From IMG/VR virus record IMGVR_UViG_3300018056_000001: a stretch of 64,000 nucleotides of DNA. One strand, 5' to 3'. The notes beneath the pieces were generated by a model, which saw only the letters and a list, made by a program, of their open reading frames with translations, was not told the origin of the DNA and ran no database searches. Below, one piece after another: positions 112 to 26,020 of this stretch. The position numbers and the translations under genes were made by a program. The stretch is from an uncultured virus (IMG/VR IMGVR_UViG_3300018056_000001) (lineage: Duplodnaviria > Heunggongvirae > Uroviricota > Caudoviricetes). Position 1 is the first letter of the stretch; each line of letters opens with the position of its first letter.

Positions 112-1071
112 CTAATTGATCGTGTTTCGCCGGTAGACTCCTCGACCGATGCGTTCGATGAGCCCCCGATCGAGCAGATCTTCGAGGGCGCGATCAAGTG
201 TCGCTTCTGACATGGGAATCTCAGAGGCGTGCTCCATCAGGTCAGCTCGTGTGGTGGGTAGACCATCTTGGCGGAAAAGGGAGAGAAGCAGTACCGATCG
301 TTTCTCTTCGGTCCCTGATCGGCTGAATGGAATGAATAGTCCACTGGAGGGATCCCTAACGAACTTAAAGTCCGCTTCGGGGGCGTGACGGGGACGCCAG
401 CCGAATAAATGGTACGGAACCTTCGGTGGGTTCGGCTCCTCGATGTACATCTGTGTGTGACAACAACCGGCAAAGGCAGTTGATCCGGCCATGCGATCGA
501 TCGCCCGATGGTACCGTTCGCGGTCATCATTCTTCTGTTTGCCCTGCCAACCGGCCGCAAGGATCGTAATGGAACGACTACGGCACCGATGAGCGAACCC
601 GATCACCGAACGGACCACAGGGCGTTGCATATTGGGGTCGCCAGCGATGAACAAGGGCGCCATTGGATCGACGACGACCAGCGATCCTGGGATTGGGGAG
701 AGCTGGGCGAGACAGTAATCGAGAAAGCCGAGTGCTCGATCAGCGCTCCACATCACATCTGTGATCGTATCGTCATCCGCAATGGCGTAGTGGGGGACCT
801 CGGGGTACCCCAGCTTCTCGAACCAGGGACGATAGTCCGAGTCCCAGCTTCGATCGGCGGCGATATAGTAGAGAGCAGTCGGTTTATTCGTTGCTCGTCC
901 ACAGACGGTTCGCCCCTGCATCAGGCGAACAATCAACTCGACAATCATCGTGGTCTTGCCGGCGCCTGTGGCTCCAGAGAAGAGAGTGACTGATCTGTAG
1001 GGAATGATGCCTGGAATGGGATCTGTGTAGGAGGCTTGACAACCGGCCGAATCTGTGGTGAGATCTGACAT
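112..1071 (-). CDS. AAA/RecA-family ATPase (RepA-like replicative helicase) with C-terminal winged helix
   Basis: Walker A GATGAGKT, Walker B LVVVD, AGSTAF motif, C-terminal HTH-like tail (SEATLDRALEDLLDRGLIERIGRGVY); GAGGAG RBS before ATG at 1071. Confidence 0.75.
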   Translation of the reverse strand: MSDLTTDSAGCQASYTDPIPGIIPYRSVTLFSGATGAGKTTMIVELIVRLMQGRTVCGRATNKPTALYYIAADRSWDSDYRPWFEKLGYPEVPHYAIADDDTITDVMWSADRALGFLDYCLAQLSPIPGSLVVVDPMAPLFIAGDPNMQRPVVRSVIGFAHRCRSRSITILAAGWQGKQKNDDRERYHRAIDRMAGSTAFAGCCHTQMYIEEPNPPKVPYHLFGWRPRHAPEADFKFVRDPSSGLFIPFSRSGTEEKRSVLLLSLFRQDGLPTTRADLMEHASEIPMSEATLDRALEDLLDRGLIERIGRGVYRRNTIN

Positions 1072-1218
1072 AGGCACTCCTCGTCTCTGGTTGGTGTTCG
1101 TCCCCCCGCTGAGATGTGAGGTCTCCAGCCTGACATCTCAGCACCCCTTCTTGTAACACACCCCTCGTTTCTCAGACAAGCGCAAGATACGGTGTCGGTC
1201 ATTAGGGCCTTTTTACGC

Positions 1219-1284
1219 TTGCATAAATTTCTCTCTCGGTATATCATTTAACACTTGACAACGGTATTCATTGGGATATAGAGT
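1219..1284 (+). promoter_or_regulatory. Two tandem sigma70-like promoters for the rightward operon
   Basis: TTGCAT(1219)-17 nt-TATCAT(1242) and TTGACA(1255)-18 nt-TAGAGT(1279) in an AT-rich divergent intergenic region. Confidence 0.55.
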
Positions 1285-1324
1285 GACCTCACGATGTATC
1301 GTGCAGAGTTGCTGAGGAGAGTCG

Positions 1325-1654
1325 ATGCGAGTGAATTCAAGTATCTCTCCGGTCGATCAATCGATCATCGATGCGATCGAGGAACGACCAGGAGAACCGA
1401 TACGGATTCGATTGCAGCCAACGGTACTCAGATTTCGAGAAGGGGATCCACGGGCGTCATACCAAGCCTGGAAGGACCTTCACTGGTTGGTGGAGCTGGA
1501 CGATCTTGACGAAGTGCGAGCCCTCCGCGAGGGCCTCGCCGCCTTCTTCTGGATCGCCGGTCAACACGGAATTGGAGCGGTGAGAGACAAACTGGCTGAT
1601 GTGCTCCCTAATCCTCCAAAAGGGGAAGAGACGGTACCAGCCAGCGCTGGATAA
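1325..1654 (+). CDS. Hypothetical protein
   Basis: 109-aa ORF with GAGGAG RBS, first gene after the promoters. Confidence 0.65.
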   Translation: MRVNSSISPVDQSIIDAIEERPGEPIRIRLQPTVLRFREGDPRASYQAWKDLHWLVELDDLDEVRALREGLAAFFWIAGQHGIGAVRDKLADVLPNPPKGEETVPASAG

Positions 1655-1658
1655 GGAA

Positions 1659-1787
1659 TTCTGCCGACGACTGACGTTGCGTACATGTCGCCTAATGGTT
1701 AGGCATCAGCCTCTTAAGCTGACTATTGCTGGTTCAAGTCCAGTCATGGTTTCCCCGAAAGGGGCGCAACACGACCTGTCGGCAGGA
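1659..1787 (+). ncRNA. Y-RNA-like ncRNA unit 1 with embedded tRNA-Lys(CTT)-like domain
   Basis: Terminal stem TTCTGCCGAC/GTCGGCAGGA, GACTGA...GACCT internal loop, stem GTTGCG/CGCAAC; inside are D arm GCCTAATGGTTAGGC, anticodon arm TCAGC-CTCTTAA-GCTGA, T arm GCTGG-TTCAAGT-CCAGT and a CCCC-GAAA-GGGG hairpin; no CCA end. Confidence 0.75.
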
Positions 1788-1794
1788 GTAAGAT

Positions 1795-1926
1795 TCGCGG
1801 TGACTGAAGAGGTTACATGTGGTTAAAGCTGAATCACGACGAGAGTGGTGGTTTAGTCAGCGGGTTCGAATCCCGTCATCCCCCCTTTTCACATGGGGGA
1901 TGATATACCTCCTTGACCTACCGCGA
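1795..1926 (+). ncRNA. Y-RNA-like ncRNA unit 2 with circularly permuted tRNA-like domain
   Basis: Terminal stem TCGCGGT/ACCGCGA, GACTGA...GACCT, stem GAGGT/ACCTC; D-loop remnant GTGGTTAAAGC, T arm GCGGG-TTCGAAT-CCCGT, acceptor-like stem CATCCCCC/GGGGGATG closed by a loop. Confidence 0.75.
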
Positions 1927-1934
1927 TGTAACGT

Positions 1935-2035
1935 TCGGGAGTACTGATTCGCTTACATGCTGGTCAGAGCCGGGAATGCTGCCGGCCCTCGGGCTAAGGT
2001 GAGCACCGTAAAATAGGCGGATCGACCTCTCCCGA
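1935..2035 (+). ncRNA. Y-RNA-like ncRNA unit 3 (short insert, no clear T arm)
   Basis: Terminal stem TCGGGAG/CTCCCGA, TACTGA...GACCT, stem ATTCGCTT/AGGCGGAT, followed by the shared TACAT. Confidence 0.7.
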
Positions 2036-2043
2036 CAACAAGT

Positions 2044-2171
2044 TCGCGGTGACTGGATTACATACATGCCCCGCCAATCTCTGGGGCCGTAGCTCAGTGG
2101 TAGAGCACCTGAGTTTACTCAGGAGGACGTCGGTTCGAATCCGACTGGCAATGTAGCCGAACCTACCGCGA
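2044..2171 (+). ncRNA. Y-RNA-like ncRNA unit 4 with tRNA-like domain
   Basis: Terminal stem TCGCGGT/ACCGCGA, GACTGG...AACCT, stem TTACAT/ATGTAG; D arm TAGCTCAGTGGTAGAGC, arm CCTGAG-TTTA-CTCAGG, T arm GTCGG-TTCGAAT-CCGAC; no CCA end. Confidence 0.75.
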
Positions 2172-2186
2172 CTAAAGGAGTGACGT

Positions 2187-3692
2187 ATGGCTGAGAAAGA
2201 ACTCACCAAGGCTCAGGCGATCGGGGAACTGACCAAGTCTCCTCACGGGGAACTGACCGATTACCTTCCTGTGGGTCCCGTGACACACCAGCAGGATCCC
2301 GAGTTCTACGCCCACCTGATTGCGTGGAACCAGCTCAACGGCGAGATCCGGGATGCCAAGGTCGCGCTCCCGGTCTTCGCGCTGCGCGGACCTGAGCCCT
2401 TCGTCGAGAACGCGTTGGCCCATCTAGCCATGCTCGATCCTCGGAACTTTGTAAGGGCCTTGGACTTCGCGCGCGATGTCAAGGCACCGTCCCGCTTGCT
2501 CCGCCGACTCGTCGAACGTTACTTGCGAGACCGGGAGCAGAATTGGCTCGCCTGGGAAGGCACAGCTTTGCAGCACCGAGGATCATTCCGCACCTTGTAC
2601 GCTCGGTATCATATCGTGCGGGACTCGAAGTTCGGAATAATCCTCTTCGGAGGCGAGCGAGGGGGGCCGAAGCTGAAGCCGCCCTCTGGAAAATTCGCGG
2701 TGCTCGCCCAACTTCTATCCATGTCCCCCGAGGAGATTGCGGGGGCGATCACCGAGCACAAGATCCCTTTCCTGATCGCACGGGGCGCCCTGGGCGCGAA
2801 GGCGAAAGATCCTGATGTCCTCCTGGCGCTGATCAAGCGGATGTCCGCGACTGAGCTGGTCACAAACACCAAGGCTCTAGAGCGACTCGGGATCAAGGAC
2901 GTCCCTGCACTCCGCGCAGCCTTTGAGGCAGGACTTGAGAAGGTCTCGAAATCGACCAGGGGGGCTGTGCTCAAGACGACACGAGCGGCCGAAGTGATCG
3001 ACGACGAACAGCTTGCACAGAAACTACACGCGACCCAGGAACGCCAGCTTGACCGGATGAAGGGAATCGAAGGGCGTTGGTTGGTCCTCGGAGACAAGTC
3101 GGGATCGATGCACACGACGATCGAAGCCTCACGCCATATTGCCGGTACGCTCGCGCGACTCGTCCGCGGGGAGGTACACCTCATCTTCTTCGATCAGGTG
3201 CCCTACTACAAGGACGTGAGCGGGAAGACCTACGAGCAGATCAAGGAAGAGACCCAATACGTCTTCGCTGGAGGCTCTACCTCGATCGGGTGTGGCGTCC
3301 GGTATCTCCTCGACAAGAAGATCGAAGTGGACGGGATCGCGATCGTCAGCGATGGGGGGGAGAATCAGCTCCCGGTCTTCGCAGCCCAGCTTCAACAGTA
3401 CAGGGAGAAGCTAGGAATTGATCCGACTGTGTACTTTTACAAGGTGGTAGGTACAGATCGAGACGTTCTGTCCCATAACTGTGCAGTCGGGGGAATTGAC
3501 CTACAGACATTCGACTTGACTCACGGCGTCGACTACTATAGCCTTCCCAATCTCGTCCAAACGATGCGAGTGGGGCGCTATCAACTGCTCGACGACATCT
3601 TGGCAACCCCACTGCGGAGGCTCGATGAGGTCCTCACGCGCACGACAGGAATGGAGGTTCAGCGGCATGTTAGAACAGCTTCGGCGGTTTGA
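2187..3692 (+). CDS. Ro60/Rsr-like TROVE + vWA RNA-binding protein
   Basis: TROVE-like DPEFYAHL and MSATELVTN segments; C-terminal vWA MIDAS motifs DKSGS, GGST, IVSDG-EN; 501 aa; AAGGAG RBS; adjacent Y-like RNAs. Confidence 0.8.
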   Translation: MAEKELTKAQAIGELTKSPHGELTDYLPVGPVTHQQDPEFYAHLIAWNQLNGEIRDAKVALPVFALRGPEPFVENALAHLAMLDPRNFVRALDFARDVKAPSRLLRRLVERYLRDREQNWLAWEGTALQHRGSFRTLYARYHIVRDSKFGIILFGGERGGPKLKPPSGKFAVLAQLLSMSPEEIAGAITEHKIPFLIARGALGAKAKDPDVLLALIKRMSATELVTNTKALERLGIKDVPALRAAFEAGLEKVSKSTRGAVLKTTRAAEVIDDEQLAQKLHATQERQLDRMKGIEGRWLVLGDKSGSMHTTIEASRHIAGTLARLVRGEVHLIFFDQVPYYKDVSGKTYEQIKEETQYVFAGGSTSIGCGVRYLLDKKIEVDGIAIVSDGGENQLPVFAAQLQQYREKLGIDPTVYFYKVVGTDRDVLSHNCAVGGIDLQTFDLTHGVDYYSLPNLVQTMRVGRYQLLDDILATPLRRLDEVLTRTTGMEVQRHVRTASAV

Positions 3693-3987
3693 CGCAGATC
3701 GATCGAATATGGATGAGATGCTCGCCCTTCGGATGTTCGGGAAACAGCTTCGCGGCGAGTATGAGACGGCGAACATCCCGGCGCCCGAGTGGCTCGACGA
3801 CAAGGTTCGCCAGCTCAATCGGGAAATCGAACTCCGTCGGCGGGACACGTTGGAGATGCGGCTCAAGGAGATCCGGGCACAGCGGACACAACTCCTGACG
3901 CCCAGCGAGCGGCGGGTGCAGCTCGAAGTGGAGGAAGCGGAGCTGAACAAGCAGCTCGGGAACGCGGTCCCAGCAACCACGACCTAG
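3667..3987 (+). CDS. Small helical/coiled-coil protein overlapping the TROVE gene end
   Basis: GGAGG RBS then ATG at 3667; 106 aa, E/R/L-rich. Confidence 0.7.
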   Translation: MLEQLRRFDADRSNMDEMLALRMFGKQLRGEYETANIPAPEWLDDKVRQLNREIELRRRDTLEMRLKEIRAQRTQLLTPSERRVQLEVEEAELNKQLGNAVPATTT

Positions 3988-4014
3988 AGAATCAGAAAGG
4001 ACAAGGGAGTTCTG

Positions 4015-4236
4015 ATGGACTACATTGTGTGGGGAGATAGCCTGCGGGATTCAAAGGGGCAACCGGTTACATTGCGTGTGAAGAGCGCAAACGGACATGT
4101 CTCTCCGGTCGTGGGACTCGTGGTCAAGGATGACACAATTGTCTGGGGTTCTGGAACAGAGTCACCGGATCTCCAGAAGGCATCAGCTCCCGAGGATACC
4201 GTCGTCATTCTTGAACGAATCGTCTGGGGTGACTAA
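4015..4236 (+). CDS. Small protein with three IVWG motifs
   Basis: AAGGGAG RBS; YIVWGD, TIVWGS and C-terminal RIVWGD. Confidence 0.7.
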   Translation: MDYIVWGDSLRDSKGQPVTLRVKSANGHVSPVVGLVVKDDTIVWGSGTESPDLQKASAPEDTVVILERIVWGD

Positions 4237-4245
4237 ACTCTGATC

Positions 4246-4470
4246 GCCGTAACCAACCGGCCGTACGGCAGTGGGAGCCATTGCGTGAAAGTTCCACAAG
4301 GGCTGCGGTGTAGCGGCCTGAGAGAAAACAATCACCATTGGGACTGCCGGCATCGCGCATATGACATGTTCGCAGATCCCAACTACACCGGCGTCTAAAA
4401 CAGGAGTCATCTTGGCGGACGCGTCACGCTGATTCCTGGATGTCCCTACAGTCGTAAAAACGGATACAGG
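4246..4470 (+). ncRNA. Candidate structured intergenic RNA
   Basis: Consecutive stems GCCGTA/TACGGC, GTGGGA/TTCCAC, CGGTGTAG/CTACACCG, TTGGGA/TCCCAA, CAGGAGTCA/TGATTCCTG; strand assumed from the operon. Confidence 0.35.
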
Positions 4471-22669: not shown

Positions 22670-22980
22670 CCACCGTCATTCACCATCGCGATCGAGGATC
22701 TATTCCTTCTGACGAGTACGTCTACATCGGACGCCCGTCGATCTGGGGGAACCCATTCAGCCATCGGCACGATTCGATCGCAACGACGATCGTCTCTTCA
22801 CGCGACGAGGCAATCGACCGGTACCGGACGTGGATCCAGACACAACCATTCCTGCTGAGACAGCTACCGACGTTGAAGGGGAAGACACTCGGATGTTGGT
22901 GCAAGCCTCGATCCTGTCACGGCGACATCCTCGCCGAACTCGCAGACGCGGTACCTGATGCCAGCTCTAGCTCGACCTGA
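22666..22980 (+). CDS. DUF4326 domain protein
   Basis: VYIGRPSIWGNPF...LGCWCKP..CHGDIL. Confidence 0.85.
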   Translation: MTTVIHHRDRGSIPSDEYVYIGRPSIWGNPFSHRHDSIATTIVSSRDEAIDRYRTWIQTQPFLLRQLPTLKGKTLGCWCKPRSCHGDILAELADAVPDASSSST

Positions 22981-25900
22981 TCCGTGCCGCGCCTGCGTCC
23001 TCGACCGCCACGCCGAGGGCTTCGCGCCGGCCGATGGCCCAGCCGGGTCCTGGCTCCTACTTGTCGGCGAAGCGCTCGGGAAGGTCGAGGCCCTCACCGG
23101 TCGCCCATTCATGGGCGATGCCGGCGGAATGCTCCAGCGACTCCTGAACATGCTCGGCTGGTCCCGAGACACCATCCGCATTCACAACGTTATCTCCTGC
23201 AGGCCCCCAGGCGATTGGTTCGACGAGCGAGCCCCTTGGTACCATGACGCCCTCGCCTACTGCCCCTACCTCGAATCCACGCTCGCTGAGCGGCATCCTG
23301 TAGTTGTCCCAATGGGTGGGACAGCCCTACGGAAGGTTCTCGGCCTAGAGGGCCACAGGAAGGTCCGAGTGCAGGATTTCCATGGCACCATCCAGCGCGA
23401 CCCCAAGGATCGCTTCTGGGTCGTCCCCACCTTCCACCCCAGCTTCCTGCAGCGCGGGGCGCACAACCTCATCGGAACTGTCTTATGGGACCTTCGGCAG
23501 GCGGAGGAGATCCGAGACCGAGGCCGGCCACAGGATCAGGCGTCTTTGGTCATCGACCCGCCGCTCGACTGGTTCAAAGCGTGGGTTGACCAAGTAGTCG
23601 CGGCTCGCTTCCATGAGCCACACGCCTATGTCGTATCGTCCGATGTCGAGACGCCAGATAAAGCCGGGGGCAAGGATGAGGGCGAGATCACGGCCGACGA
23701 CAAGAGTTTCCAGATCCTCCGAGTCAATGTGGCGTGCCATCCTGACGAAGGTATCACAGTCCCCTTTGCTGGCTCCTACATCGACGAATTACGCCGTCTT
23801 CATCAAAGCCCTGGGTCGATCTGGCAGTGGAACAAGGAGTACGACTTCATCCGACTATTAACTGCAGGAATCTTCACGGGAGAGGAAGACCAGAGGCGAG
23901 TCATCGATCTCATGTGGCTGGGGAAGCATCTCCAGTCAGACGTCCCGATGGGCTTGGGCTACTGGGCGCCCTTCTACTCAAGTTTTGGTGCATGGAAGCA
24001 CCTTGCCGACAGCGATCCCGCGCGCTATGGGGCGATCGACGGACTCCAGACACATCGAATTGGATTCGGGATCATCACCGATCTGATCAAGCTGGGGATG
24101 TACGAGCAGGCCCTGCGGCACAAGCATCAGCTTCACTGGCAAGCCCTACGGCCGGCACAGCTCGTCGGGGTGAAGATCGATCGCCAACGACTGCAGATCT
24201 TCAAGCAGGAGCTGATCGAGAAGGCAGCGATCCGACTCGACGCCCTCACGACGTACTATCCTGTCGAGCTAGCTCCCCTGACTCCGAAGGGAGGGCTGTC
24301 GAGTCCCCCACCCGCGAACGTCCTCCATGTCAAGGCGTCAGCGTTCACCAGAAAGGGGAAACCGAAGTCAGGGAAACAGGCGACAGAGCTGAAGCTCGAT
24401 CTCTACAAGCGAGCAAAGGTTATTGAGCAACTCGTGCTGAAGGAGGTCCTCGTCTGCAAGACCTGTAGCGAAAAGGACGTCCCCAGGCGACATCGGTGCA
24501 AGCTGGCCTACATCGGGAAGGATGGGCTGACCAAGTACAAAACTTCCCCAACTACTCCTGAGATCTCGATCGAGATCGCGTCAGTCTCCCGCTGGTTCTG
24601 GCAGGAACCCTTCAATCCCGATAGCTGGAAACAGGTCCTCGCCTACATCAAGTTCAAAGGGAAGACGGACAAGAAGCATAGCCCTGGGCGAGCGAAGAAG
24701 ACACACAAGGACACAACGAACCGCGAAACGCTCGAACGGCTGGAAGTGAGGACGAAGGATCCCCTCTACAGGACATTGCTCGACTATCGAGCGATCGTGA
24801 AGGTGAAGGGGACGTATGTTGAGGGCACGGAACGCAGACTCGACAGTGAGGATCGAGTTCATCCCCAACCGACCTTTCGGCCAAGTATGGGTCGAAAATC
24901 GTACGTGAATCCAAACATCACGAACGTTGTCGCCGACAAGGAGGGCAAGGATACGCTTGCAGCGGGCTTTCGAAAGTGTATCGTCTCTAGTCCAGGCTGT
25001 CGACTTCTCGAAGTCGACTTTGCCTCCATCGAGGCGATCAAGGTGGGCGAGCGCGCGAGAGATCCCGATTACATTCGACTCGCTCGGCTCGGGGTCCATG
25101 CAGGGATGGCGAGTCACGTACTCGGACGACCATTCGATCGAAGCTGGTTGAAAGATCGTCCCGCGGACCTGAAAGCCTACTTCGATGAGATCAAGTACAA
25201 CCCCGATCCGAAGATCGTCCAGACCTATGATCGAACCAAACGCTTTGTGCACGGCAAAGCCTACGGACTCACCGTATTCGGGATGGTCCTGCAGTTCCCG
25301 CAACTGTTCCCGACCCTCGAAGTCGCTCAGCGCTACGAGAAGATCTTCAACGAGATGGCGCCCAAAGTCGTCAAATGGCAGCGTCAGACCCAGGATCGAG
25401 CGGCGAAGGAACACTTCCTCGGGGGACCAGGGGATCATCCGTACGGACTGAAGCATTGGTTCTGGTCGGTCTACACCTATAAACGCCTCACGACGACCCA
25501 ATACTATCGATTGATTGGACGATGTGAGAAAGAGGGTGTCGAACCTCCCATCGCGATCATCAATGGGGAGAAGTTCCGAATTGGGTACGGGGAAGACGCC
25601 AAGCGCACGCTTGCTTTCTATCCCCAGAGCATCGCGGCAGGAGATCTCGATGTCGCCCAGATCGCCCTCTTCGATCCCGAGTCCCCGAGCTATGTTGGTG
25701 ATGCCTATTACGGGCGCACTCCTCTACGGGGGCCGATCCATGATTCCTTACTCCTAGAAATTCCTGATCTGACCTGGGATCGTACCTGTGAGCGGATCTT
25801 CGCAGAGATGCAGCGACCCCTGGTCACACAACCGATTCCCGCGGAGTGGGAGATGGGACCTTACCTGACGAACAACGTATCGGCCAAGGTGGGGCACGAT

Positions 25901-26020
25901 TGGGATAACATGGAGCGACTCAAGGTGCCAACGTTTAGTGATCTTGAACCATCGATCTGGACACCGGCTGAGGAGATCGACGAGGAAGATGGACGTGACC
26001 TCGCGCGGAGGATTGCATGA
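22958..26020 (+). CDS. polA: Family A DNA polymerase with N-terminal uracil-DNA-glycosylase-like domain and 3'-5' exonuclease
   Basis: UDG4-like LVGEALG..E...GRPF, CRPP, TFHPS; exo DVET; motif A EVDFASIE, motif B KRFVHGKAYG, motif C IHDS. Confidence 0.9.
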   Translation: MPALARPDPCRACVLDRHAEGFAPADGPAGSWLLLVGEALGKVEALTGRPFMGDAGGMLQRLLNMLGWSRDTIRIHNVISCRPPGDWFDERAPWYHDALAYCPYLESTLAERHPVVVPMGGTALRKVLGLEGHRKVRVQDFHGTIQRDPKDRFWVVPTFHPSFLQRGAHNLIGTVLWDLRQAEEIRDRGRPQDQASLVIDPPLDWFKAWVDQVVAARFHEPHAYVVSSDVETPDKAGGKDEGEITADDKSFQILRVNVACHPDEGITVPFAGSYIDELRRLHQSPGSIWQWNKEYDFIRLLTAGIFTGEEDQRRVIDLMWLGKHLQSDVPMGLGYWAPFYSSFGAWKHLADSDPARYGAIDGLQTHRIGFGIITDLIKLGMYEQALRHKHQLHWQALRPAQLVGVKIDRQRLQIFKQELIEKAAIRLDALTTYYPVELAPLTPKGGLSSPPPANVLHVKASAFTRKGKPKSGKQATELKLDLYKRAKVIEQLVLKEVLVCKTCSEKDVPRRHRCKLAYIGKDGLTKYKTSPTTPEISIEIASVSRWFWQEPFNPDSWKQVLAYIKFKGKTDKKHSPGRAKKTHKDTTNRETLERLEVRTKDPLYRTLLDYRAIVKVKGTYVEGTERRLDSEDRVHPQPTFRPSMGRKSYVNPNITNVVADKEGKDTLAAGFRKCIVSSPGCRLLEVDFASIEAIKVGERARDPDYIRLARLGVHAGMASHVLGRPFDRSWLKDRPADLKAYFDEIKYNPDPKIVQTYDRTKRFVHGKAYGLTVFGMVLQFPQLFPTLEVAQRYEKIFNEMAPKVVKWQRQTQDRAAKEHFLGGPGDHPYGLKHWFWSVYTYKRLTTTQYYRLIGRCEKEGVEPPIAIINGEKFRIGYGEDAKRTLAFYPQSIAAGDLDVAQIALFDPESPSYVGDAYYGRTPLRGPIHDSLLLEIPDLTWDRTCERIFAEMQRPLVTQPIPAEWEMGPYLTNNVSAKVGHDWDNMERLKVPTFSDLEPSIWTPAEEIDEEDGRDLARRIA

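Follow-up and report, generated by a model that had tools for sequence, protein, structure and literature searches.

A putative array of four Y-RNA-like units with tRNA-like interiors upstream of a Ro60-fold gene in an uncultured phage

The sequence analysed here, referred to as the window, is the 64,000-nt IMG/VR record IMGVR_UViG_3300018056_000001 from an uncultured virus of the Caudoviricetes. Positions 1659–2171 of its plus strand form an RNA array of four tandem modules, spaced 6–8 nt apart, which is placed between a small open reading frame (ORF) at 1325–1654 and a 501-codon gene at 2187–3692 that is predicted to encode a Ro60-fold protein. The modules share one bulged stem, termed the scaffold, and differ in the payload that the stem encloses. 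The region is probably a polycistronic array of four Y-RNA-like non-coding RNAs (ncRNAs) that serve the phage's own Ro60 homologue. The anatomy of the array, its conservation in other phages and its linkage to the Ro60-like gene are directly observed.

The array and its scaffold

The modules (units 1–4) are located at 1659–1787, 1794–1926, 1934–2035 and 2043–2171, all on the plus strand. In the predicted folds, the 5′ and 3′ ends of each module pair into the same stem. In this stem, an outer helix of 7 bp is followed by an asymmetric internal loop (5′ GAC or UAC and 3′ ACCU in the window; 5′ NAC and 3′ AYYU in the family) and then by an inner helix of 9–10 bp that starts with a U·G wobble closing the internal loop. 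The hexamer UACAUG follows as an invariant junction, where the variable interior starts. A long end-paired stem with a conserved internal loop, as is typical of Y RNAs, is found in all four units.

An earlier note, made from the letters of the sequence alone, had proposed that tRNA-like payloads of different topologies occupy positions 1682–2150 and had suggested folding of each unit as a check. Each unit folded alone forms the closing stem, with minimum free energies of −54.4, −56.1, −43.6 and −51.7 kcal/mol for units 1–4. The outer stem is recovered in every unit with z-scores between −2.5 and −4.3: −3.9 (−3.87) for unit 1, −4.3 (−4.30) for unit 2, −2.5 for unit 3 and −3.0 for unit 4. All the tRNA-like elements that had been listed are found in the sequence at the places given for them. 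The proposed span holds for these elements but misses the outer stem strands, and the full array is 1659–2171.

A covariance model of the scaffold (termed R1) was built from 20 short units of other phages, which come from 15 loci; the window was excluded. With filters off, R1 gives units 1–4 scores of 24.4, 32.1, 45.6 and 19.9 bits, with E-values of 2e-5 to 8e-14, and the next-best match within positions 1400–2600 is 4.4 bits. With default filters, units 3 and 2 and nothing else are reported over the whole 64-kb window. The outer stem strands of units 2 and 4 are identical over 13 and 11 nt (repeats D1 and D3), despite which the interiors of these two units are unrelated. The proposal that different tRNA topologies are carried on one scaffold is thus borne out, both by the R1 matches and by the element orders described below.

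The Ro60-fold gene

The last position of the array, 2171, is 16 nt before the ATG of the 501-codon gene (2187–3692, +). A ribosome-binding site, AAAGGAG, is found at 2174–2180 (+), separated by 2 nt from unit 4 and by 6 nt from the ATG.

The AlphaFold2 model of the 501-aa protein, with a predicted local distance difference test score (pLDDT) of 89.3, displays a HEAT-repeat ring and a C-terminal vWA domain. The 12 best Foldseek matches in the PDB are all Ro60/TROVE proteins (E-values 4e-9 to 2e-7, TM-scores 0.53–0.60, 445–569 aligned columns). They include the proteins of Thermus phage phiLo, human, Xenopus and Deinococcus radiodurans (Rsr). A profile made from 41 family sequences matches TROVE/RO60 chains of the PDB at E-values of 3e-3 to 6e-3, and PHROG 850, annotated as "RNA-binding protein", matches the C-terminal part. 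A Pfam search with the protein returned no family at E ≤ 0.01, TROVE included, and NCBIfam and single-sequence PDB searches gave no name. Precomputed Pfam annotation of the homologues lists vWA families only. The profile and fold matches to Ro60 thus identify the gene product as a Ro60-fold protein of a divergent phage clade. The Ro60/TROVE fold is present in the model; the TROVE signature of Pfam is not detected.

Relatives of the protein are numerous and unnamed (915 at E ≤ 1e-3 among 8000 candidates scored). A tblastn search of GenBank phages gave two records, the better with 30% identity in an uncultured megaphage, and no close homologue in a cultured phage.

Scaffold units in related loci

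The related loci (numbered here with the prefix L) comprise 68 from IMG/VR and five from metagenome-assembled genomes. Their proteins show 39%–59% identity to that of the window. The exact sequence TACATG is found 182 times upstream of the gene and four times in equal lengths downstream. A strict parser, which asks for the motif and for complementarity, detected 78 units upstream and none in downstream or reverse-strand controls. A relaxed form of it detected 114 upstream units, among them all four of the window, versus three and four in the downstream and reverse-strand controls. A looser, duplex-based finder that was tried at the start gave many false units in coding sequence; it was replaced by the motif parser and then by R1.

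An alignment of the 20 units displays changes on both sides of 15 of the 16 stem pairs. Paired cells amount to 86.9%, versus 50.8% in shuffles and 29%–49% when the partner strand is slid, figures that are partly circular because the R1 units were picked by a parser that demands complementarity. The covariation score is 0.905 versus 0.234 after shuffling, and the U·G wobble is kept in 17 of the 20 units. The diversity of pair types and the matches in independent loci are free of this circularity.

R1 was also used to search 60 related loci. Of these, 49 contain matches at E ≤ 0.01, 110 in total. All 110 share the strand of the Ro60 homologue, and every one of 109 distinct units ends before the start of the homologue. 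The location of Y RNAs, on the same strand and next to a Ro60 orthologue, is thus found here as well. Up to five R1 units are present per array. The distance from the last R1 unit to the start of the protein match is 17–33 nt in 12 of 48 other loci and 41–1613 nt in the other 36. Events at the last stem, either processing or the binding of Ro60, could determine where the Ro60 mRNA begins or how it is translated.

A scan of IMG/VR for the scaffold motif alone gave 80 loci among the matches listed, which makes it a weak test of exclusivity. Four of these 80 have R1 matches, and all four contigs carry the Ro60 homologue; the remaining 76 are chance matches.

Units 1 and 4

Unit 1 (1659–1787, +; R1 E-value 6e-7) is a scaffold that encloses a tRNA-like cloverleaf in native order. 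Its R1 match covers 1662–1784, where the strands of the outer helix (S1) are 1662–1668 and 1778–1784. GAC is at 1669–1671, UACAUG at 1682–1687 and ACCU at 1774–1777. The payload (1681–1752, +) resembles tRNA-Lys(CUU). The Rfam tRNA model (RF00005, gathering threshold 29) matches it at 1681–1752 with 50.1 bits over model positions 1–71, the two outermost acceptor pairs being non-standard. ARAGORN annotates it as tRNA-Lys with anticodon CUU (ctt), and this is its sole tRNA call in the 64-kb window. The acceptor is formed by 4 bp between CATG at 1684–1687 and CATG at 1745–1748. There follow, all on the plus strand, a D arm (1690–1704), an anticodon arm (1706–1722) with a perfect 5-bp stem and the 7-nt loop CUCUUAA, a variable (V) region CUAUU, and a T arm (1728–1744). 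An accessory hairpin, CCCC-GAAA-GGGG (1753–1764, +), is found where the 3′ tail of a tRNA would sit. A GNRA-loop hairpin is present at the equivalent place in native-order units of L047, L067, L018, L025, L053 and L055.

The nearest sequences to the core of unit 1 are tRNA-like sequences with a CUU anticodon in two phage arrays, L051 (0.79 identity) and L067 (0.72). That of L067 is a scaffolded unit. That of L051 is called tRNA-Lys(CUU) by ARAGORN; it was missed by R1 and lies inside a unit of the first rough parse.

Unit 4 (2043–2171, +; R1 match 2044–2171, E-value 2e-5) also has a native-order tRNA-like body. The cloverleaf payload (2086–2149, +) is matched by the Rfam tRNA model with 45.8 bits over model positions 4–67, which likewise exceeds the gathering threshold, and there is no ARAGORN call. 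GCCG at 2086–2089 pairs with TGGC at 2146–2149 to form a 4-bp acceptor. The D arm is at 2092–2106, the arm in the anticodon position at 2108–2123 (6 bp with the 4-nt loop UUUA) and the T arm at 2129–2145, preceded by the V region AGGAC, all on the plus strand. The Levitt pair 15:48 (standard tRNA numbering) covaries between the two units, A:U being possible in unit 1 and G:C in unit 4; the same argument has been used for YrlA (Chen 2014, PMC4201824).

The core of unit 4 is 0.81 identical to that of the last unit before the gene in L030. In this homologue, too, the arm has 6 bp and a loop of 4 nt, and the version in L025 has a 6-nt loop. The homologues carry a 3′ GCAA hairpin and sit in a stem different from that of unit 4.

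Unit 4 has its extra hairpin at the 5′ side instead, CCCC-GCCAAUCUCU-GGGG (2069–2086, +; CCCC 2069–2072, GGGG 2083–2086). Its loop begins with G-CCA, and its 3′ strand runs on as GGGGCCG-UA-D arm. The hairpin reads like the 3′ end of an acceptor, a discriminator, CCA and a spacer, followed by the 5′ strand of the acceptor. N-CCA is found at the equivalent loop position in units of L043, L038, L034 and L044 and in a CCCCCC-U-CCA class described below. An interpretation of the extra hairpins as the outer half of a split acceptor stem was dropped for the native-order class as a whole, where there are many acceptors of 5–7 bp with or without a hairpin. It was kept for unit 4 only, where the loop starting with G-CCA gives a hint of it.

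The complete set of tRNA features (a 7-bp acceptor, free ends and a 7-nt anticodon loop) is present in neither unit. Each has four standard acceptor pairs, and both acceptor strands continue into the scaffold. The earlier description of units 1 and 4, that is, D, anticodon and T arms in native order, a 4-bp acceptor joined to the scaffold, and an extra hairpin which is 3′ in unit 1 and 5′ in unit 4, agrees with these results. The further statement that the anticodon arm stays exposed holds in part. A canonical anticodon loop is found in unit 1 only, whereas the loop of unit 4 has 4 nt and the arm of unit 2 is long and non-canonical.

Units 2 and 3

Unit 2 (1794–1926, +) is a scaffold that encloses a permuted tRNA-like body. 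The R1 match is 1795–1926, with S1 at 1795–1801 and 1920–1926, GAC at 1802–1804, UACAUG at 1814–1819 and ACCU at 1916–1919. Its interior begins with a D-loop-like segment, GTGGTTAAAGC (GUGGUUAAAGC), at 1819–1829 (+). A long arm of about 10 bp occupies the anticodon-arm position (~1828–1857, +); it has no 7-nt loop with U33 and R37 and fails the rule-based test for an anticodon arm. The T arm, GCGGG-UUCGAAU-CCCGU, is at 1860–1876 (+). Right after it begins an acceptor-like hairpin, CAUCCCCC/GGGGGAUG in the fold (inverted repeat I2), made by CATCCCCC (1877–1884) and GGGGGATG (1895–1902) on the plus strand, with 8 bp and a 10-nt closing loop.

Units 2 and 3 have no match to the Rfam tRNA model at E ≤ 10. 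Partial matches to the T-arm region of transfer-messenger RNA (tmRNA) are found at the T arm of unit 2. The Rfam model tmRNA_permuted matches the T arm and acceptor stem with 20 bits, below its gathering score of 47. The rest of the Rfam output for 1500–2400 consists of chance matches.

Four relatives of unit 2 are found in other loci (L013 2154–2287, L028 2237–2371, L018 1700–1837 and L034 2044–2185). They begin with UACAUG-GU(U/A)AA, a 3-nt strand in the place of the D-stem 3′ strand, an A, an anticodon arm, the V region and the T arm. A closed 7-bp acceptor comes next, then 2 nt, a 3-nt strand in the place of the D-stem 5′ strand, an A-rich linker and the scaffold. The anticodon arm has 5 bp and a 7-nt loop in three of the four, and acceptor stems of the type ..CCCCC/GGGGG.. 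recur in these homologues. The 3-bp D closure covaries (GAC/GUC in two, AGC/GCU in one and AAC/GUU in one), and the two 3-nt strands act like a D stem in which the scaffold has taken the place of an opened loop.

Unit 2 aligns with the four relatives throughout, including a compensatory change from G-C to C-G in the outer helix, and GUGGUUAAAGC aligns with (AU)GGU(U/A)AA and the D-stem 3′ strand of the D-loop-opened units (alignment A4). The segment with the D-stem 5′ strand is missing from unit 2, where the five-row alignment has a gap of 14 columns. In this alignment the anticodon arms were misaligned by MAFFT, and the evidence for the D-loop-opened type is thin. The earlier suggestion that unit 2 is a circular permutation opened at the D arm therefore stands for the type, by way of its four homologues. 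The window copy, which is without the D-stem 5′ strand, appears to be a derived form of this type.

ACAUGGUUA is the D loop of ordinary phage tRNAs as well (loci of the L074 type), and in further viral contigs ordinary tRNAs have D loops that read ACAUGG followed by UUA, as at this junction. A pattern scan for D-loop-opened units gave 21 stretches, mostly ordinary phage tRNAs (with the D loop ACAUGGUUA) and duplicate loci, and two units on a different stem. The IMG/VR loci L081 and L092 have units of the form UACAUG-GUAAA, hairpin, T arm, hairpin, with a different flanking stem (..GCCGAUGUGGAU). These are possibly a second scaffold family.

Unit 3 (1934–2035, +; R1 match 1935–2035) is a scaffold that encloses two hairpins. 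It is the best R1 match of the array, with 45.6 bits and an E-value of 4e-12 over the whole window. That unit 3 has no T arm, as stated earlier, is confirmed by the rule-based scan and by the lack of an Rfam tRNA match noted above.

Payload orders across the family

The payloads of 113 distinct units, 109 from other loci and four from the window, were classified by rules. A T arm requires G53/C61 and a UUCRA loop; a D arm requires 4 bp and a loop of the form A..GG..A/U; an anticodon arm (AC) requires five perfect pairs, U33 and R37; and an acceptor stem (AS) is a hairpin that starts no more than 3 nt after the T arm. A T arm is present in 52 of the 113 units, versus 0.25 in shuffles.

The native order, D-(AC)-T, is displayed by 23 units. 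The published order of YrlA (T-AS-D or T-D) is found in 13 units, T-AS-D-AC or T-AS-AC in two, and AC-T-AS in three. One unit that reads AC-T is in native order, with a D arm that did not satisfy the rule, ten units with a T arm are unclassified, and 61 have no T arm. By these rules, units 1–4 of the window read D-AC-T, T-AS (with no D arm after the AS), no T arm, and D-T. In nine other loci, a single array contains at least two of the T-arm topologies. A comparison of inserts across homologous arrays, proposed earlier as a check, thus shows that the payload orders D-AC-T, T-AS-D, T-AS-D-AC and AC-T-AS recur.

RNAalifold applied to 22 native-order units, unit 1 among them, recovers both scaffold helices together with the D, anticodon and T arms, and 23 of 28 pairs have a compensatory change. 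Some native-order units have an acceptor of 5–7 bp, e.g. L023 624–750 and L028 1335–1463.

T-AS-D units with a canonical anticodon arm are L052 2190–2322 and L038 1408–1546. The T-AS-D-AC order was also seen by eye in the rough parse, at L012 463–607, L013 1854–2000 and L060 2241–2382. Units of this order amount to a whole cloverleaf with its opening in the variable region, where the scaffold takes the place of a long variable arm.

One conserved class without a T arm, which is absent from the window, has the form hairpin, GCCCCCC-U-CCA-C(C)AAA...GGGGGGG, hairpin. It is found at L009 1754–1869, L016 1377–1495, L018 1144–1263, L027 2241–2356, L028 1626–1744 and L053 1776–1898. Its central element looks like a 7-bp acceptor stem with a loop that begins with a discriminator and CCA.

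Five viral contigs of the 100-kb class (L013, L016, L018, L023 and L028) have at least five units of different types, seemingly in the same order: native-order, YrlA-order, CCA-loop class, D-loop-opened, and a short unit by the gene. The arrays of these five loci are located inside large tRNA clusters. ARAGORN annotates 16 R1 units as tRNAs (e.g. L016 343–417, L027 1463–1531 and L073 2340–2413). Its calls on units include odd ones, e.g. a "tRNA-Stop(tta)" suppressor, a 2-nt "anticodon" and tRNA-Phe(aaa), and several called units have unusual anticodon loops. As scaffolded units are called tRNAs, counts of phage tRNAs near Ro60-like genes are probably inflated.

Origin of the payloads

The earlier note took the variety of payloads to suggest repeated independent capture of tRNA genes into one scaffold. 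The results do not support this. Payload types recur in phages whose Ro60 proteins are only 42%–59% identical, and native-order cores group together. D-to-T cores from the 23 native-order units were compared with 122 of the 139 ARAGORN tRNAs outside R1 units in the same loci (those of ≤79 nt). Other scaffolded units fill 50 of the 69 three-nearest slots, versus 15% expected. Mean core identity is 0.62 within the scaffolded set versus 0.52 to free tRNAs, and several of the "free" neighbours are located within arrays and are probably units overlooked by R1. Anticodons differ widely among related native-order cores. This rough test with short sequences fits unit types that are inherited with changing anticodon loops, and not repeated fresh captures.

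The identical stem ends of units 2 and 4 hint at modular exchange between scaffold and payload. Together with the different stem of the unit 4 homologues, they indicate that scaffold and payload can have separate histories. Because the N-CCA signature opens several acceptor loops, there is a hint, not a proof, that the permuted forms arose from tRNA genes arranged head-to-tail.

Relationship to known systems

Bacterial Y RNAs are described as at least two RNAs upstream of rsr, made from one precursor, with tRNA-like domains. They are bound and stabilised by Rsr, and they tether PNPase (Chen 2014, PMC4201824). YrlA (RF02553), known from bacteria and mycobacteriophages, is among the closest systems. 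As in the accounts of Chen 2014 and Wang 2018 (preprint 10.1101/312249), the array is upstream of a Ro60 gene on the same strand, with a long end-paired stem and a distal tRNA mimic that has a T arm and a loop-closed acceptor. The preprint describes this closed-acceptor design as a "circularly permuted tRNA". YrlA is reported to have a conserved YUAY after the 5′ stem strand, where the window has the junction UACAUG.

There are also clear differences. The YrlA order V-T-AS-D, in which the Ro stem replaces the anticodon stem, occurs in the 13 units on this scaffold in related loci noted above and in none of the four of the window. Units 1 and 4 retain an anticodon arm, and unit 2 has a modified one. 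The window lacks the motif GNCGAAN0-1G and gives no match to RF02553 (gathering score 69 bits). Four units are present here, and up to five in relatives, whereas known loci have one YrlA and one YrlB.

Yrn1 of D. radiodurans resembles units 1 and 4 in having its Ro stem at the acceptor end, a likeness drawn from its published description only. The text of Chen 2014 (PMC4201824) gives it a T/D orientation opposite to that of YrlA, a 5-bp stem with a 6-nt loop in the anticodon position, and co-transcription with other Y RNAs and a tRNA. The difference between native-order Yrn1 and permuted YrlA is ascribed there to independent evolution. The tRNA likeness of Yrn1 is called "less evident", with no clear D arm (PMC4201824, 10.1101/312249), whereas units 1 and 4 pass the Rfam tRNA threshold.

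In Thermus phage phiLo, Ro60 is reported to bind the upstream RNAs Yrl1 and Yrl2 and the host PNPase (PMC12135203; PDB 9KOP, 9L5Y). The phiLo Ro60 is the top structural match of the window protein, with about 15% sequence identity. Its two RNAs are defined by a CGAA bulge, and tRNA-like payloads do not figure in that description.

Another Ro60-like protein, gp130 of phage Bas63, adjoins annotated tRNA genes in the PhageMaP preprint (PMC11482910). Its authors suggest that some of the neighbouring "tRNAs" are Y RNAs and report that gp130 counters the ppl defence. The preprint's account of gp130 contains no RNA analysis, and the window protein has no such cultured-phage relative by tblastn.

Unit 2 resembles permuted tRNA-like genes (two-piece tmRNA, and those cited in 10.1101/312249) in its order of T arm, acceptor 3′ strand, loop and acceptor 5′ strand. 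Unlike permuted tmRNA, it has no mRNA-like part or tag, and its ends are locked in the scaffold, whereas those of tmRNA are freed by cutting.

A search of the full-text literature, which did not extend to the supplements of Chen 2014, where drawings of phage Y RNAs could bear on novelty, gave no description of arrays with several topologies.

Neighbouring genes

A sigma-70-like promoter candidate is found at 1255–1284 (+), as TTGACA, an 18-nt spacer and TAGAGT (10 of 12 consensus matches). It is the sole such site found in 1050–4300; shuffled sequences yield 1.2 sites, so the promoter evidence is weak. There is no terminator-like site on the plus strand up to 4300. On this weak evidence, the ORF at 1325–1654, the array and the Ro60-like gene may form one transcript. 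The ORF (+), between the promoter candidate and unit 1, encodes 109 aa. It gave no family match, and no tblastn match in the 73 related loci.

The ORF of a conserved small helical protein (106 aa; 3667–3987, +) overlaps the last part of the Ro60-like gene, and tblastn detects this protein just after the Ro60 homologue in 66 of the 73 loci. It has no family in Pfam, PHROG or NCBIfam, and an Atlas search gave generic helical matches only. Its position makes it a possible partner in the Ro60 system.

Upstream, 112–1077 on the minus strand encodes a divergently oriented 321-aa P-loop ATPase (AAA_25, E-value 3.5e-12) with a C-terminal tail like a helix-turn-helix and weak matches to AbiEi_4 and HVO_A0261_N. 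It does not adjoin the array in other loci. Positions 1–82 of the window are of low complexity (G-rich, then T/A runs, then ~22 C) and look like a contig-end or assembly artefact. Phage genes of the window include two SU10-type adaptors, an SLT transglycosylase and a Dam-like methylase. An ORF of 1020 aa (22958–26020, +) combines a domain of the uracil-DNA-glycosylase superfamily (residues 26–168) with a family-A DNA polymerase. In G001, the nearest virus record, the array region is absent and there is no YrlA match.

Discussion

If the array works as bacterial Y RNAs do, stem-closed RNAs would be released from a precursor by cleavage. The bulged stem would be the Ro60-binding module, lying on the outer face of the Ro60 ring as Y RNAs do, and the tRNA-shaped or hairpin distal ends would be effector modules that recruit or block partners. 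Units 1 and 4 would display a native-order tRNA body through a short acceptor attachment, with no free CCA end. Unit 2, as a derivative of the D-loop-opened type, would display a T arm stacked on a closed acceptor hairpin, and unit 3 would be a plain two-hairpin module comparable to YrlB. Ro60, and via it a host exoribonuclease such as PNPase, would be tethered or gated by tRNA-shaped handles for tRNA-binding proteins. Such a role is likely by analogy with D. radiodurans, Salmonella and Thermus phage phiLo.

Several observations weigh against the array being a set of Y-RNA-like ncRNAs for Ro60. The Ro-binding sequence is GGUCCGA in animals and GNCGAAN0-1G or CGAA in bacteria and phiLo, according to the published accounts (PMC4201824, PMC12135203). 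Neither the animal sequence nor the bacterial motif is present on the 5′ strand of the scaffold. The 5′ strands read NACUG(A) instead, and CGA(C/U)U is found on the 3′ strand. An Rfam search of 1500–2400 at E ≤ 10 gives no match to Y RNA or YrlA, and Pfam does not detect TROVE in the protein. The pairing figures are partly circular, as noted. The element orders come from a strict home-made rule set that leaves ten T-arm units unclassified, the D-loop-opened type is based on four independent homologues only, and the layout of the 5′ hairpin in unit 4 is unique to the window. A metatranscriptome (X3) has small contigs at 1300–1444 and 3604–3700 and none over the array, which is silent either way.

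The stems may alternatively be processing cassettes of the RNase III/E type, which would release tRNAs, or near-working tRNAs, from the transcript of a tRNA cluster. The Ro60-like gene of relatives does lie inside large tRNA clusters, the 16 ARAGORN calls and the 5–7-bp acceptors of some native-order units speak for this, and N-CCA at the start of several closed acceptor loops would suit RNase P cleavage followed by 3′ trimming, which is reported for YrlA of Mycobacterium smegmatis (PMC4201824). It is nevertheless unlikely, in view of the units themselves. The window has 4-bp acceptors, a 4-nt loop in unit 4, a permuted unit 2 and a unit 3 that does not resemble a tRNA, and a T arm is lacking in 61 of the 113 family units. 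The conservation of UACAUG and the asymmetric loop goes far beyond the needs of a duplex cleavage site, and the units strictly track the Ro60 homologue.

A role mainly as a cis-acting leader, in which Ro60 would bind the last stem and autoregulate its translation while the upstream units act as decoys or stabilisers, is quite unlikely as the whole explanation, and it is compatible with the Y-RNA interpretation. The close spacing of unit 4 to the ribosome-binding site (2 nt) and ATG (16 nt) speaks for it, as do the 12 of 48 other loci with a spacing of 17–33 nt and the lack of a terminator-like site between array and gene. The last detected unit of the other 36 loci is 41–1613 nt upstream, however, and up to five distinct conserved payload types would not be needed for autoregulation.

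That the units are decayed tRNA genes and chance repeats without function, as the truncated acceptors, the aberrant anticodon loop of unit 4 and the missing D-stem strand of unit 2 might suggest, is highly improbable, given stems kept by compensatory changes across phages, R1 E-values of 2e-5 to 8e-14, strand and position conserved in 109 of 109 units, controls with 0–4 false units versus 78–114 found, and proteins only 39%–59% identical, which makes assembly-duplicate loci unlikely.

A more specific form of the Y-RNA interpretation is offered tentatively, and it is doubtful as a whole. The array may be a "tRNA display rack", i.e. a Ro60-binding scaffold that presents tRNA bodies with host-matched anticodon loops for use in phage-host conflict. 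The bodies would either be joined at the acceptor or have a closed acceptor and an opening at the anticodon loop, the variable region or the D loop. An example of a host-matched anticodon loop would be that of CUU (Lys), which is conserved in three phages. The bodies could be decoys or sensors for host defence proteins that cleave or bind tRNAs or, alternatively, could bring Ro60 together with a host exonuclease to damaged tRNAs. Head-to-tail tRNA genes would be the source of the permuted forms, with the N-CCA loops as relics.

Significance

Several features of this system, taken with its relatives, are new. The scaffold is distinct and conserved, and goes with a Ro60 clade that is invisible to Pfam. 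The payloads include near-complete cloverleaves with real anticodon loops. Several topologies, the D-loop-opened and T-AS-D-AC forms among them, are present side by side on one scaffold. By analogy, the array would work like the Y RNA/YrlA system.

Tallies of phage tRNAs next to Ro60-like genes need caution, as tRNA finders count scaffolded units as tRNAs. The scaffold signature is easily searchable, and about 50 related viral loci are available. In view of the Bas63 gp130 report, a role in phage-host conflict is plausible. Y RNAs are understood in few organisms, and the role of their tRNA-like domain is described as still open (PMC4201824). The presence of several tRNA wirings on one scaffold provides a natural experiment on which face of the tRNA matters for Ro60.

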